Sequence record: NZ_MK973083.1
Direction: 5' to 3' (one strand)
Length of the DNA stretch: 5,600 bases
Source: a plasmid
A program made the position numbers and the translations under genes. Of this stretch, positions 1-4,877 are shown one piece after another (the first letter of the stretch is position 1; the number at the start of each line of letters is the position of its first letter). The notes beneath the pieces were generated by a model, which saw only the letters and a list, made by a program, of their open reading frames with translations, had not been told where the DNA came from and did not search any database.

Positions 1-320
<320 letters not shown>

Positions 321-384
321 CTGTCAGACCAAGTTTACTCATATATACTTTAGATTGATTTAAAACTTCATTTTTAATTTAAAA

Positions 385-407
385 GGATCTAGGTGAAGAT
401 CCTTTTT
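385..407 (+). terminator. bla intrinsic terminator (GGATCT-AGGTGA-AGATCC hairpin plus T5)
   Basis: Perfect 6-bp stem at 385-390/397-402 followed by TTTTT at 403-407, ~65 nt after the bla stop. Same sequence as downstream of bla in Tn3/pBR322. Confidence 0.6.
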
Positions 408-414
408 GATAATC

Positions 415-582
415 TCATGACCAAAATCCCTTAACGTGAGTTTTCGTTCCACTGAGCGTCAGACCCCTATCTATAAACTCTTGGCTTGGTTCTAATCCCT
501 CTAAACGATTATTATCAATAGCCGCTCTAACCGCTTTTTCTCGGCTTAATTTTTCTGTCTCTGTTATAAAATTGCTATTCAT
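415..582 (-). CDS. Small hypothetical ORF truncated/fused by the transposon end. About 38 native residues are backbone-encoded (MNSNFITETEKLSREKAVRAAIDNNRLEGLEPSQEFID) and the last 17 residues are encoded by the Tn IR. ATG at 582 preferred over the track's TTG at 597.
   Basis: ORF track 415..597. The reading frame crosses the Tn boundary at 467/468, so its C-terminus is not native. It is co-directional with rep and 25-40 bp downstream of it. Contains an RLEGLEP motif (see findings). Confidence 0.4.
   Translation of the reverse strand: MNSNFITETEKLSREKAVRAAIDNNRLEGLEPSQEFIDRGLTLSGTKTHVKGFWS
430..467. repeat. Tn3-family 38-bp terminal inverted repeat (right end, IRR)
   Basis: CTTAACGTGAGTTTTCGTTCCACTGAGCGTCAGACCCC is the reverse complement of the canonical Tn3 IR GGGGTCTGACGCTCAGTGGAACGAAAACTCACGTTAAG. 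Similarity to the Tn3/pBR322 sequence stops exactly at 467. Confidence 0.9.
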
Positions 583-621
583 CTTGTTCTTCTTCAAAAA
601 AAAGTTAAGTAAAATACCTAC

Positions 622-1608
622 CTAAATTTTTACTAGTTCGCAATCTACGAGCTTATAACCTCGTTTTTTCAATTCATTTAAAAAATCAGATTTTGAGCCT
701 AATTTTGATCTATTGCTATCGTTACCCGCTAGAAATACCCAGTAATTACGCAAATCTTCATTGGTAACTTTCGTAATATCGGTGTAATGATCTTCGAGTA
801 TTTTTAAGCAATCTCTAGCCCATAAACCGTACTCGTGATTGCTCATCTTAGGGTTTTGCTTATCGAGTTTGACGAACTTCCCATACTTGTTTTTATGTGG
901 AAATACTGGCCGTTTTGCAACTTCTTCAATTTTTTGAGCTGTTCGTTTTTTACTACCAATCACAAAATTTAAAGAGTGAATAGTACGCCCACGCTTGATT
1001 TGTTCAACCTCAACGACTAAATCAGATTTCTCGTTAATCTCAGTTATTGCAGGTTCCAAAACACGTTGATTTAATGAATTAAATCTAGGGTATTTATTTT
1101 CAACCTGAAGCCATTCTTTTAGTTTTTCTACTGTAATTTCACGACTACCAACAGAGCGATATTGTGTAATTAGCTCATAAATTCGAATTGAATGTACACT
1201 GTTGAAATAAGCGATATGTTTGAGTTGATATTGCGTGAATTGCCCTTTAAGTTGCGTTAGGTATAGCATAACTTCATCAGTCATTGCAATTCTAAAACGC
1301 CCCTCTTTCTTGAAATATGTTCTAGAGGAAACCCAACGAAATTCAGTTACACGGTCTTTATCTTCAGTTTTAACACTTCGGTCATAAATCCGTTTTATAG
1401 CCGCCTGAATTTGCTTATAGGCGTTATCTTGGCTTATTTCTGGAAACTCACGGACAAAATCAGCCACCGTAAAATCAAAAATCTTTTGATTAGATTTCGG
1501 ATCCATAGTCCCAATAGTTAAAGCTAAAATTCTGATTTCATCAATACTCAATCGGTAATTGGCTTCAATAAGGCTATTAGCCTTTACAACAACTAAATCA
1601 TTTGGCAT
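622..1608 (-). CDS. rep: Rep_3-family iteron-binding replication initiator protein
   Basis: 328-aa ORF. The N-terminus ...[23 protein letters not shown]... has the hallmark Rep_3 (pi/RepA-like) signature. It lies immediately beside four 22-bp iterons and an AT-rich region. Confidence 0.92.
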
Positions 1609-1630
1609 AAGACAACAAATTTCCTGTTTA
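1609..1630. promoter_or_regulatory. Inverted iteron copy abutting the rep start codon; likely Rep autoregulatory operator. Additional TTGTTGT/ACAACAA half-site copies in both orientations at 1632-1696.
   Basis: AAGACAACAAATTTCCTGTTTA is the reverse complement of iteron-like TAAACAGGAAATTTGTTGTCTT and ends at the rep ATG (1608). Its AGGAAA lies ~11 nt upstream of the ATG on the rep strand and could double as SD. Confidence 0.5.
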
Positions 1631-1696
1631 AAACAACAAGCAAAATATACCTGTTGTTTATATATAAAACAACAAGTATTTTCTTAAAAGTTGTCT

Positions 1697-1789
1697 ATAA
1701 CAGGAAATTTGTTGTCGTATAACAGGAAATTTGTTGTCTTATAACAGGAAATTTGTTGTCGTATAACAGGAAATTTGTTGTCGTATAAG
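1697..1789. repeat. Origin iterons: four tandem 22-bp direct repeats ATAACAGGAAATTTGTTGTCGT (1697-1718, 1719-1740 with one G->T, 1741-1762, 1763-1784) plus a partial fifth ATAAG
   Basis: Directly visible head-to-tail 22-bp repeats with no spacers, located upstream of the rep start. Confidence 0.92.
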
Positions 1790-1860
1790 TTTGTAACTTA
1801 TTGATTTTACTGGTTTTAAAAACGCCGAAAACAAGTAAAAAACAAAAATATAAAAATATA
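1790..1860. other. AT-rich region adjacent to the iterons; probable DNA-unwinding element of the vegetative origin
   Basis: TTGTAACTTATTGATTTTACTGGTTTTAAAAACGCCGAAAACAAGTAAAAAACAAAAATATAAAAATATA is more than 80% A+T. The iterons-plus-AT-rich layout is typical of Rep_3 origins. Confidence 0.55.
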
Positions 1861-1909
1861 GGGACTTTCGTCCCTTTTTTGGGCTTTCAGCCCTAATTTT
1901 TTCTTTTTT
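1861..1909. terminator. Twin short GC hairpins (GGGAC-TTTC-GTCCC then GGGCT-TTC-AGCCC) flanked by T/A runs on both sides; candidate bidirectional terminator between origin and mob module
   Basis: Hairpin 1 at 1861-1874 is followed by T6 on the plus strand and by TATATTTTTATATTTTT on the minus strand. Hairpin 2 at 1881-1893 is followed by TAATTTTTTCTTTTTT. Confidence 0.45.
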
Positions 1910-1929
1910 CAGGATTAAAAATTACAAAA

Positions 1930-2010
1930 CCCTTACAGAGCAAGTAAACTTGTTTGCTTGTTCTGCAAGGGTTCAGCAACCGTAGCCGTCAGGCGTAGGG
2001 CGGTAGCCTA
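1930..2010 (-). repeat. Left copy of a ~78-bp inverted repeat (IR-A). Contains the nested hairpin CCCTTACAGAGCAAG-TAAACTTGTTTG-CTTGTTCTGCAAGGG (1930-1971). Starts at the stop codon of the 85-aa ORF.
   Basis: The reverse complement of 1930-2010 aligns at ~80% identity with 4167-4243, shown here as rc/plus pairs: TAGGCTACCGCCCTACGCCTGACGGCTACGGTTGCTGAACCCTTGCAG... versus TAGCTAACGCCCTACGCCTACGGCTTCGGTTGTTCAACCCTTAAAG... Confidence 0.8.
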
Positions 2011-2265
2011 TAAAAGCCATTTAATTTTATCTTTAAACTTCCTTTTAAATGCTTTGAGTGGGTGTCTTTTATCGTACTCATCAATCCTTTTTTGCATTCT
2101 TTCGTTTGCTTTGTGATCGGCAAATTTTGAATAAGATTTTTCCATCTCATCTAACATTCTATCAATCCGTTTTTTATGTTGCCATTTCAGGTAAACATAA
2201 ACACTTATAGCAATTAAAGACAATATCAATACATTGTAAAAAATGATTGTTACAATTTCGCTCAC
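2008..2265 (-). CDS. Hypothetical 85-aa protein with one N-terminal transmembrane helix and a highly basic C-terminus; co-transcribed with mobC; possible mobilisation accessory (MobB-like role is speculative)
   Basis: GTG start 2 nt after the mobC stop (TAA-CT-GTG). Hydrophobic stretch IVTIIFYNVLILSLIAISVYVYL, then a K/R/E-rich tail. Followed by IR-A hairpin plus T-rich run. Confidence 0.55.
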   Translation of the reverse strand: MSEIVTIIFYNVLILSLIAISVYVYLKWQHKKRIDRMLDEMEKSYSKFADHKANERMQKRIDEYDKRHPLKAFKRKFKDKIKWLL

Positions 2266-2267
2266 AG

Positions 2268-2564
2268 TTATTTTTTACCTTTTTCAATTTCTTCATTGAT
2301 AAATGCACTCAATTCATCAAATTTCTTGTCATCATTGATAAATTTACGCAACTTAGGGAAGTTTCTATCTACATCTAAAAGAGGGTTATTTATTATTTCA
2401 TTTAGCCAAAAAGCCCCTAATAAAACCTTGTAATGCGTAGCTTTCTTACGCTTTTCTGCTTGTTCTTTTGACTTAATCGCACGAATTTTCGCTTTGATTT
2501 CGTCCTGCTTGCGTTGTAAATCTGCTTGTTGCTGTTCCAATCTTGTAAGTTTTTCGCTTGCCAT
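2268..2564 (-). CDS. mobC: MobC-like relaxosome accessory protein
   Basis: 98-aa ORF divergent from mobA across oriT, as in RSF1010. MASEKLTRLEQQQADLQRKQDEIKAKIRAIKSKEQAEKRKKATHYKVLLGAFWL resembles RSF1010 MobC (...RLAKLEEQRARINAEIQRVRAREQQQERKNETRRKVLVGAMILAK...) from memory. AAAGGGG SD upstream. Confidence 0.8.
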   Translation of the reverse strand: MASEKLTRLEQQQADLQRKQDEIKAKIRAIKSKEQAEKRKKATHYKVLLGAFWLNEIINNPLLDVDRNFPKLRKFINDDKKFDELSAFINEEIEKGKK

Positions 2565-2597: not shown

Positions 2598-2626
2598 ATT
2601 TTATTCAGTAGGTGCTAGGCTTGCAA
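2598..2626 (-). promoter_or_regulatory. Candidate mobC promoter: the same palindromic -35 TTGCAA (2621-2626), 17-bp spacer, -10 TAAAAT (rc of 2598-2603)
   Basis: Mirror image of the mobA promoter. TTGCAA is its own reverse complement. Confidence 0.4.
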
Positions 2627-2650
2627 GTGTTCTGTTCATTACGTTAAAAT
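2621..2650 (+). promoter_or_regulatory. Candidate mobA promoter: -35 TTGCAA (2621-2626), 18-bp spacer, -10 TAAAAT (2645-2650)
   Basis: Sigma70-like hexamers read directly. The -10 lies within the oriT IR, compatible with relaxosome autoregulation as in RSF1010. Confidence 0.4.
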
Positions 2651-2732
2651 AACGTAATGCCCACTTATCAGTTTCTCTTCGAGAAACTGGTGGGCAAGCG
2701 TACCGCTTGACCGTTTCGCAATACTCAACACT

Positions 2733-4169
2733 ATGGCAATCTATCATTTAAACGTTCGCTATTGCAGTAAAAGCAAAGGGCAATCAGCTCAAGCCAAAAA
2801 CGACTACATCAACCGCAATGATAAATATTCAAAGCGGTTAGATGATTTACAGTTTTCAGGCTATGGTAATATGCCAAAATTTGCCGAAGATAATCCGCAA
2901 GAATTTTGGCGATTGTCAGATATTTACGAGCGAGCTAATGCCCGAGTTTGTACTGAAATTGAATTTGCTTTACCTAGAGAATTAACCCTAGAACAACAGC
3001 AAAAATTAGTAAGTTCGTTTATAGAAAATACGGTTGATAGCGGTAGCAATAAACTACCCTACTCTTTCGCTATCCATACCGATAAAAATAATCATAATCC
3101 CCATTGTCATTTGATATTTTCAGAACGCCAACTTGACGGCATAGACCGTACAGCCGAGCAGTTTTTTAAACGTGCTAATACTAAATCCCCAGAAAAGGGC
3201 GGAGCGATGAAAACGGCAGATTTTCGAGATCGTGAGTTTATCCAATCTGTCCGAAAAACGTGGAGAGAGCAAGCTAATCAAGCCTTAGAGCAATACGGAT
3301 ATGCCGCACGAATTGACGAACGTAGCTACAAGGAACAAGGCATAGAGCAAGCCCCAAGAGCAAGAATTGACAGGGTAACGTGGCAAGAATTGAACCGATT
3401 AGAGCAAGAAGAACGCCAAATCGTGCAAGAGCTTGCACTTAAAGGACAAGAAATTAACAAAGAAAAATCCTACTTGCAGAAAATCGAAGAAAAACAGGCT
3501 CAAGGAATGGGCAAATATGAATCCAAATTCGCAGCTGCGTTTTCTAAATTATCGGAAAGTGCCCTAAAACACGATTTAAGCAACGAAAAAGAAAAAGACA
3601 GTAAAATACACACTCAAGAAGAAAAAGTGCCTCAAAATCGCATTCAGGGGCTTTCTCAAGCAGATTTTGATCAGTTTTTAATTGATGAATGGCTACCTCA
3701 AATAGAAAAATACGTTAAAGCCCAAGAAAAGCGGGACGGAATGGAAGTAGAGATCACGCAATACGACAAGGATTTACAGCGTATTCAGGGAGACTATAAC
3801 AAGCTCACAGATAAAAATCAGGGTTTTCTCGGTTTATGGGAAACTAAAGAGCAAAAAGCAAAGAAAAAAGAGCTTGAAGATGAATACAAACATACAGCAG
3901 AGCAACGGAACGCTAAAAGCCAAGAATTAGCCGAGTATAGCCAAAAAATAAAAGCATACGAACAGAAAACGCTAGAGCCAATCAACGAGAAGATTGCCAA
4001 ATATCAAGCTGACAACCCTGAAATAAAAATGCGGAGCTTAGGATTTGTGAAAAAAATTAAGGCTCAAGGGGCATATAAAGCGGCTCAAGAGCGAATGGAG
4101 CGAGAAAAACAGCACCAACAGGAAAAACAACAGAGACATTTAGAGCGAGAGAGTGGTTTGAGCTTGTAG
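2733..4169 (+). CDS. mobA: MOBQ-family relaxase MobA (RSF1010 MobA-like N-terminal relaxase domain of ~200 aa, then a long E/K/Q-rich predicted coiled-coil tail; no primase domain)
   Basis: N-terminus MAIYHLNVRYCSKSKGQSAQAKNDYINR... versus RSF1010 MAIYHLTAKTGSRSGGQSARAKADYIQR... (catalytic Tyr at position 25). EIEFALPRE acidic motif. HTDKNNHNPHCHLIF three-histidine motif. KTPEKGGAMKT versus KTPEKGGAQKT. Confidence 0.93.
   Translation: MAIYHLNVRYCSKSKGQSAQAKNDYINRNDKYSKRLDDLQFSGYGNMPKFAEDNPQEFWRLSDIYERANARVCTEIEFALPRELTLEQQQKLVSSFIENTVDSGSNKLPYSFAIHTDKNNHNPHCHLIFSERQLDGIDRTAEQFFKRANTKSPEKGGAMKTADFRDREFIQSVRKTWREQANQALEQYGYAARIDERSYKEQGIEQAPRARIDRVTWQELNRLEQEERQIVQELALKGQEINKEKSYLQKIEEKQAQGMGKYESKFAAAFSKLSESALKHDLSNEKEKDSKIHTQEEKVPQNRIQGLSQADFDQFLIDEWLPQIEKYVKAQEKRDGMEVEITQYDKDLQRIQGDYNKLTDKNQGFLGLWETKEQKAKKKELEDEYKHTAEQRNAKSQELAEYSQKIKAYEQKTLEPINEKIAKYQADNPEIKMRSLGFVKKIKAQGAYKAAQERMEREKQHQQEKQQRHLERESGLSL

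Positions 4170-4367: not shown

Positions 4368-4877
<510 letters not shown>

Follow-up and report, generated by a model that had tools for sequence, protein, structure and literature searches.

The divergent mobC and mobA genes of the plasmid record NZ_MK973083.1 are separated by only 168 bp, which raises the question of where this gap is nicked for transfer, what its second inverted repeat (IR) is for, and how the promoters of the two genes are laid out around the nick. The original prediction, made from the sequence, described a compact origin of transfer (oriT) with an RSF1010-like IR and a nick core on the minus strand, a second perfect IR across the nick core, and mirror-image promoters sharing one palindromic -35 box. 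We analyzed the whole stretch of 5,600 nt (hereafter the window) and, reading both strands, found all these elements in the sequence (Table 1). The region at 2598-2709 is the oriT already characterized for a well-known gonococcal and Haemophilus beta-lactamase plasmid, i.e., a real and largely known feature. We consider with good confidence that it is the oriT and control region of a MOBQ mobilization module on a Rep3/iteron replicon, working in the way proposed below. The plasmid, pbla, spreads a TEM beta-lactamase among gonococci that one or two substitutions would turn into an ESBL. Hence, the details of its mobilization have public-health relevance.

The plasmid and its mobilization module

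Megablast of the whole window returned Neisseria gonorrhoeae TEM plasmids (pbla variants) and a Haemophilus parainfluenzae plasmid, a cryptic element of 4,208 bp that shares its backbone with the window. When the end of the window is joined to its start, bla spans the 5600/1 junction and an intact TEM beta-lactamase of 286 aa is restored. Hence, the 5,600 bases are a complete circular plasmid, the Africa-type N. gonorrhoeae TEM plasmid pbla.1. Directly upstream of Rep3 (1610-1640) is an inverted partial copy, with the four tandem iterons (TATAACAGGAAATTTGTTGTC-type) nearby, a typical origin and autoregulation layout for a Rep3-type replicon. The resolvase reading frame, cut to 136 aa, is a Tn2/Tn3 remnant. 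According to the list of open reading frames, more than 2 kb upstream of mobA are devoid of any plus-strand gene, and a search of the window with Rfam found no known RNA families. A Haemophilus-type mob/oriT module also occurs on a 4.3 kb contig (CAKMOM010000019.1) binned in a MAG labelled uncultured Streptococcus sp.; this assignment probably reflects misbinning, to which small plasmids are prone.

MobA has MobA_MobL as its only domain (PF03389, E = 3.5e-30). Its residues 2-190 match the sequence of the crystal structure of the R1162 MobA relaxase (2NS6, E = 3e-55) with Tyr25, ExE and HxH in register: NDY25 is aligned with ADY25, EIEFALP with EVEFALP, and NPHCHL is identical. The protein has therefore the N-terminal MobA/MobL HUH domain, the Tyr25 and the acidic and three-histidine motifs of MOBQ relaxases. 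MobC is homologous to RSF1010 MobC (36 % identity over 56 aa, E = 3e-9), and its small gene diverges from the oriT as in other MOBQ modules. Hence, the module is MOBQ and RSF1010-like. The plasmid itself is not IncQ, since it lacks the repA/repB/repC replicon and the MobA-primase fusion of IncQ1 and has a Rep3 replicon with 22-bp iterons.

The mobilization of pbla has been studied by experiment. Its oriT, MobA and MobC are the subject of earlier work (Rodriguez-Bonano & Torres-Bauza 2004; PLoS Pathog 2025), and the literature, citing Rodriguez-Bonano & Torres-Bauza 2004, places the oriT between mobA (NEIS2961) and mobC (NEIS2962). Mobilization of pbla by pConj was abolished by deletion of mobA, lowered by deletion of mobC, and unaffected by deletion of orf85 (NEIS2964) (PMC12080925), which establishes a genetic need for mobA and mobC. 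Site- and strand-specific nicking and mobilization by a helper conjugative plasmid have also been reported in the literature for this plasmid, and the junction of a natural deletion variant, pEM1, at the predicted nick bond (see below) supports this indirectly.

Table 1. Coordinates of features in the 5,600-nt window; a slash within a sequence marks the predicted nick or pseudo-nick bond.
Feature	Position	Strand	Description
bla 3' end	9-320	+	
VbhA-like antitoxin	415-597	-	
Rep3 initiator	622-1608	-	Rep3_N/Rep3_C
Iterons	about 1693-1786		four, 22-bp, near Rep3 gene
Terminator-like hairpin	1928-1973	-	after mobC-orf85 operon; 3' foot (TAAGGGTT/TTGT) is candidate pseudo-nic and left endpoint of pEM1
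orf85 (NEIS2964)	2008-2265	-	
mobC (NEIS2962)	2268-2564	-	accessory relaxosome protein, 98 aa; ORF and RSF1010 MobC homology
Predicted mobC -10	2598-2603	-	TAAAAT; invariant in all close relatives; ends 33 nt before mobC ATG
Candidate -35, both promoters	2621-2626		TTGCAA, palindromic; consensus match
IR2	2637-2659 (2637-2646/2650-2659)		CATTACGTTA-AAA-TAACGTAATG; perfect 10/10, 3-nt loop
Predicted mobA -10	2645-2650	+	TAAAAT, inside IR2 loop; consensus match
Predicted nic	2659-2660	-	G2660/C2659, TAAGTGGG/CATT; alignment to RSF1010 substrate, pEM1 junction
Nick core	2660-2668	-	ATAAGTGGG; invariant in all close relatives
IR1	2669-2689 (2669-2677/2681-2689)		CAGTTTCTC-TTC-GAGAAACTG; relaxase-binding hairpin by RSF1010 homology; 9/9, 3-nt loop
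Core complement	2690-2696		GTGGGCA, complement of TGCCCAC (2658-2664, spans nick)
IR0	2695-2709		CAAGCG-TAC-CGCTTG; third hairpin, between IR1 and mobA
mobA (NEIS2961)	2733-4169	+	MOBQ relaxase, 478 aa; PF03389, 2NS6 match
Truncated resolvase	4467-4877	+	

The nick core and the hairpins around it

The minus strand of the region reads CCAGTTTCTCGAAGAGAAACTG-ATAAGTGGG-CATTACGTTATTTTAACGTAATG, as the original prediction had it. For the oriT comparisons, the RSF1010-type plasmids L038 and L003 stood in for RSF1010. IR1 and the core are identical to the RSF1010-type sequence at 30 of 35 positions, including all of the first 20 nt (CCAGTTTCTCGAAGAGAAAC), which bears out the predicted likeness. In RSF1010, the same IR is the MobA binding site (PMC4814116). 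The MOBQ consensus TAAGTGCGCCCT has TAAGTG in common with the pbla core (PMC3832669). MOBQ oriTs have, some 8 nt before nic on the strand that is transferred, an IR that serves as relaxase binding site; likewise, IR1 ends 9 nt before the predicted nick. When compared with the nick-region consensus NWACCNNTAAGTGCGCCCTYNN (as quoted in PMC3832669), the window core TAAGTGGGCATT has the consensus base at 8 of 12 positions of the core, with TAAGTG and the bond-flanking G and C kept and CGCCCT changed to GGCATT. This variant is invariant in the subfamily. In PMC4814116 (Table 1), purified RSF1010 MobA cuts ...GGTAAGTGCG/CCCTCCC at the bond that the slash marks. The substrate as aligned is CAGTTTCTCGAAGAGAAACCGGTAAGTGCG/CCCTCCC (short form TAAGTGCG/CCCT; same table), and the window minus strand aligns to it as CAGTTTCTCGAAGAGAAACTGATAAGTGGG/CATTACG. 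The relaxase, MobC, the literature and a natural deletion junction described below agree on an RSF1010-like (MOBQ) oriT in the gap between the divergent mob genes, with the minus strand as the nicked one. The identity of the element, the strand, and the homology of proteins and site can be taken as shown.

The nick core is flanked by potential for secondary structure beyond what chance would give. IR1 and IR2, 9 nt apart, are among the three longest perfect short-loop hairpins of the window, and only 6.5 % of windows simulated with a Markov-1 model have a hairpin with 10-bp arms anywhere. The predicted fold of the region as single-stranded DNA has -24 kcal/mol, compared with -9.1 +/- 2.2 in shuffles (z = -6.9), with the nicked strand forming three neighbouring hairpins, IR0, IR1 and IR2. 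Counterparts of IR0 with other sequences are found in Avibacterium L046 (ATCG/CGAT) and in L047 (CTTTCG/CGAAAG), and IncQ1 has CCGCCC-GAA-GGGTGG at the matching place.

The original prediction regarded a second IR beside the nick as foreign to the canonical RSF1010 arrangement. We analyzed 22 MOBQ oriTs in nicked-strand orientation, drawn from PLSDB matches at 40-50 % MobA identity and from contigs with homologues at 46-81 %. A perfect IR of at least 6 bp starts 0-7 nt past the predicted nick in 13 of the 22, with unrelated sequences. It is CCCTAC-AAA-GTAGGG in the RSF1010 type (6 nt after nic), CCGTAC-AAA-GTACGG in an IncQ1 variant, and CTCATG-TTC-CATGAG in Aeromonas pPH18. It starts right at the nick (+0) in an E. 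coli Col156 plasmid (CATCCCTGA-ATTAA-TCAGGGATG), in Acinetobacter baumannii (CATTAC-N12-GTAATG), in Fusobacterium (CATTTTATTTTT-CTC-AAAAATAAAATG), and in L047 (CACTGATT-N8-AATCAGTG), whose MobA is 68 % identical to that of pbla and whose core is the same (GAAGTGGG). In L056, an 8-bp IR lies at +9. So the perfect 10-bp IR directly 3' of the nick stands as predicted, but its presence is neither unusual nor a departure from RSF1010, which is among the types that have one. Eight of the 22 oriTs have no IR2 or only a weak one, so that the element is common rather than universal and not essential to the MOBQ family.

In pbla, IR2 abuts the predicted nick and makes up the first 23 nt of the transferred strand. 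Its arms are conserved in close relatives while the loop varies, and some of the changes are compensatory. Plasmids p11745 and pMAF6 differ at only three points of their 168-bp intergenic region, all in IR2: a loop indel and two arm changes, the arms being CACTACG...CGTAGTG in p11745 and CATTACG...CGTAATG in pMAF6. Their MobC proteins are identical at 96 of 97 positions and their MobA domains at 200 of 201. A compensatory double change also separates the RSF1010 type from the IncQ1 variant, where MobC is identical at 92 of 94 positions and MobA at 99 %. Scans of genome and metagenome contigs with exact anchors found only near-identical relatives and chance matches in unrelated contexts, with little variation in IR2.

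The main alternative to pairing would be that IR2 serves chiefly as a duplex operator, bound by the accessory protein MobC as a dimer, its sequence co-evolving with each MobC. Seen from nic, IR2 lies toward mobC; it overlaps the -10 predicted for mobA and has a lineage-specific sequence across MOBQ oriTs, and in other systems TraJ, TrwA and NikA have sites near nic. Yet, in both close pairs IR2 changed symmetrically with MobC nearly constant (96/97 and 92/94), as selection for pairing predicts, and we regard the operator as unlikely to be its main role. Since the symmetric changes accompany MobC and MobA proteins that are 98-99 % identical, they favour selection for intrastrand pairing rather than for a sequence that a protein recognizes, although palindromes can also acquire compensatory changes through template switching, with no selection for function. 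That IR2 both acts through intrastrand pairing and gates the mobA promoter is a tentative proposal, possible rather than probable. Against it, the minimal R1162 oriT is not known to contain the IR downstream of nic. A role of IR2 as intrinsic terminator was rejected because a T-run is lacking after it on both strands. The hairpin at the nick is a recurrent MOBQ feature kept by compensatory change.

A further pairing involves the core itself. The 5 nt that precede the nick, GTGGG, have their exact complement CCCAC directly 5' of IR1, and positions 2658-2696 are a 39-bp interrupted palindrome that spans the nick and extends IR1, with five of the seven outer base pairs present in the predicted fold. 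A complement of the core 5-mer is found upstream in 19 of the 22 MOBQ oriTs and covaries with the core: GTGGG/CCCAC here, GTGCG/CGCAC in E. coli and IncQ1 plasmids, and GCGTG/CACGC in Fusobacterium. We found no description of this core-complement pairing in the accessible literature. In L047, a 17-bp perfect palindrome (GGAAGTGGGCACTGATT...AATCAGTGCCCACTTCC) located about 160-200 nt upstream of the mobA start, in nicked-strand orientation, includes the nick core, and there is therefore a mirror copy of the core on the other strand, at the far side of IR2.

Predicted mob promoters and a proposed mechanism

The palindromic TTGCAA is separated by 18 bp from the predicted -10 box toward mobA and by 17 bp from the one toward mobC, and these TTGCAA/TAAAAT pairs are the best-scoring candidates on each strand of the window. 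Their hexamers match the consensus at only 9 of 12 positions, in AT-rich DNA, and the four consensus promoter matches in 700 bp are not enriched over shuffles (2.0 +/- 1.4 expected). The mobC promoter (PmobC: TTGCAA or TTGAAA, 17 bp, TAAAAT) is kept in every close relative while the neighbouring bases diverge, and its TTG aligns with TTTGCC of IncQ1. TTGCAA is kept in the window and the H. parainfluenzae plasmid, pZ44, L030 and L032; the -35 box is TTGAAA in pMAF6, p11745, L046 and L011, and TCGCAA in L021.

The predicted mobA promoter is more variable. Four lineages have a mobA promoter whose -10 falls in the IR2 loop. It ranks first or joint first among the candidates of pZ44 (TTGCAA-18-TAGAAT) and L030 and, having arisen independently, of L047 (TTGGAA-18-TATAAT), the -10 of pZ44 and L047 standing at the same position as in the window. 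The sublineage of pMAF6, p11745, Avibacterium and Mannheimia has instead TTGAAA, which is not palindromic, as its -35, and its loop hexamer points toward mobC, leaving a weak hexamer (TATTTT) in the mobA direction. The best mobA-direction candidate of pMAF6-type plasmids (L005, L006, L046, L011) is TTGCTA-17-TATTGT, which fully overlaps PmobC. Each -10 there lies over the -35 of the other promoter, a different solution from the shared -35 of the window. Another candidate, TTGACC-16-CACTAT just upstream of mobA, was rejected as its -10 overlaps the ATG. A 10/10 inverted repeat termed I3 (2594-2603/2645-2654, CGTTATTTTA/TAAAATAACG) joins the region of the mobC -10 with the loop of IR2. Its centre nearly coincides with TTGCAA, and it makes both -10 boxes resemble parts of a larger operator. 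I3 was dropped as an operator for its lack of conservation (pZ44 has TAAAATAACC and pMAF6 TAAAATAGCA), and is probably lineage-specific or due to chance.

The TTGCAA/TAAAAT hexamers might be chance matches in AT-rich DNA, with the real mob promoters lying elsewhere or having another architecture. The number of promoter-like matches, which does not exceed the shuffle expectation, would fit this explanation, as would the lack of a family-wide shared -35 and the other candidate of pMAF6-type plasmids. However, all close relatives keep the hexamers and spacing of PmobC unchanged or in an improved form (TTGAAA) despite diverging flanks, L047 has again a perfect TATAAT in the loop of an IR2 of unrelated sequence, 18 bp from TTGGAA, and both mobA and mobC need promoters inside the 168-bp gap. 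Chance matches therefore seem to us a rather doubtful explanation, and we accept the two predicted promoters with modest confidence. The predicted compact, overlapping divergent promoters beside nic hold in this comparison. The mirror-image arrangement around one palindromic -35, which the original prediction proposed, scores best among the candidates in the window, pZ44 and L030, and is lost in the pMAF6 sublineage, from which both the palindrome and the mobA-facing hexamer are absent. A single shared -35 is plausible, but would be specific to a lineage. RSF1010 offers a precedent: its divergent mob promoters P1 and P3 reportedly overlap oriT and are autoregulated, with transcription starts within oriT and repression by the Mob proteins.

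We propose the following mechanism, in which the two promoters, their autorepression and the role of IR2 are those that the sequence suggests. MobA would bind the IR1 hairpin and the core on the minus strand, cut the predicted bond and become attached to the 5' C of C2659. The transferred strand would leave with IR2 first, followed by mobC, and MobC would assist this step. IR2, conserved in position and variable in sequence, would be kept for intrastrand pairing at the nick, as a hairpin or a cruciform arm. In this lineage the mobA promoter would also have its -10 and start region within IR2, with the mobC promoter reading the opposite way from the same -35 region. Given this layout, transcription of mobA, and probably that of mobC, would be expected to cease when the relaxosome assembles or a hairpin is extruded at nic.

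The pEM1 deletion and comparison with known systems

The plasmid pEM1 (NC_019211; Johannesburg variant) consists of window positions 1-1927 joined to 2660 onward, 1928-2659 being missing. The junction (1927/2660; pEM1 1927-1928) shows no microhomology. Hence, its right endpoint is the bond between 2660 and 2659, which is exactly the predicted nick bond. What is kept on that side is IR1 with the core, ending in a 3' G, as joined by a relaxase at termination. The left endpoint, TAAGGGTT/TTGT, has the same 8-nt register as TAAGTGGG/CATT. We therefore strongly infer that the exact nick bond is 2660/2659, and are highly confident of the oriT identity, the nicked strand and the bond taken together. 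The deletion suggests that the relaxase initiated at a pseudo-site and terminated at the true nic, with loss of the interval. The left endpoint lies at a 22-bp imperfect hairpin (z = -3.3) followed by TTTTGTAATTTTT on the minus strand, which, coming just after orf85, resembles an intrinsic terminator of the mobC-orf85 operon. Lacking IR2, both predicted promoters and mobC, pEM1 is expected to be poorly mobilized.

Because both endpoints are at hairpin feet, the left one at the 3' foot of the 22-bp hairpin (1928-1973) and the right one at the outer edge of IR2, replication slippage or breakage associated with hairpins could also have produced pEM1, but this is improbable given that the junction lacks the flanking microhomology that slippage normally uses, that the retained side is precisely the relaxase termination product (IR1 and core with 3' G), that TAAG stands in the same 8-nt register at the left site, that chance would place the endpoint at the predicted bond in about 1 of 5600 bonds, and that R1162 Mob proteins are said to be active at cryptic origins. 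Relaxase action, as suggested by this one natural variant, is the simplest of the readings considered. The published coordinates of the Rio/Toronto and Australia deletions showed no coincidence of endpoints with nic. The natural deletion of pEM1 maps the nick bond, and suggests that the relaxase generates structural variants of pbla. The Meyer laboratory reportedly observed that the R1162 Mob proteins act at cryptic origins and in oriT-specific recombination, and pEM1 looks like a product of such events, from pseudo-site to nic.

A broader reading would be that MOBQ oriTs share an unrecognized structural grammar, with the nick core between IR1 and IR2 and paired with its complement, that these pairings gate nicking and the mobA promoter, and that the relaxase remodels plasmids. 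We consider this whole reading improbable as it stands, although not negligible. If true, alternative intrastrand pairings would decide whether the scissile bond is exposed to MobA. In this lineage they would also open or close the mobA promoter in the IR2 loop, coupling nicking to expression, and the same relaxase would remodel plasmids in the wild, pEM1 being an example of a nic-to-pseudo-nic deletion.

Among the closest known systems is the Asia-type gonococcal beta-lactamase plasmid (pSJ7.4/pJD4/pbla.2), which has the same mobilization module. The window is its Africa-type deletion derivative, with mobA, oriT and mobC kept; nothing substantive differs at oriT, and the variants differ in the repB region. 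Small resistance plasmids of Pasteurellaceae (p11745, pMAF6 and pZ44, from Actinobacillus, Glaesserella, Pasteurella and Mannheimia) have an intergenic region 82-87 % identical to that of the window. They have the same PmobC, and their IR0, IR1, core and IR2 arms either match those of the window or show compensated changes. Differences lie in the sequence and orientation of the IR2 loop, in the -35, which one sublineage has as TTGAAA, and in replicons and cargo.

Another of these systems, RSF1010/R1162 (IncQ1, MOBQ1), has the same IR1 (20/20 over CCAGTTTCTCGAAGAGAAAC), and shares with pbla TAAGTG and the G and C at the scissile bond, the strand and polarity of IR, nick and mobC, the divergence of mobC and mobA, a short IR 3' of nic, and a -35-like TTG at the aligned position. 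The two differ in the core (TAAGTGGGCATT in pbla and TAAGTGCGCCCT in RSF1010/R1162, 8/12) and in IR2, which has 10 bp and abuts nic in pbla, whereas its RSF1010 counterpart has 6 bp and is 6 nt away. The core complement is directly 5' of IR1 in pbla and 5' of IR0 in RSF1010/R1162. Finally, the 478-aa MobA of pbla has no primase domain, and its Rep3/iteron replicon contrasts with the repA/B/C replicon of RSF1010.
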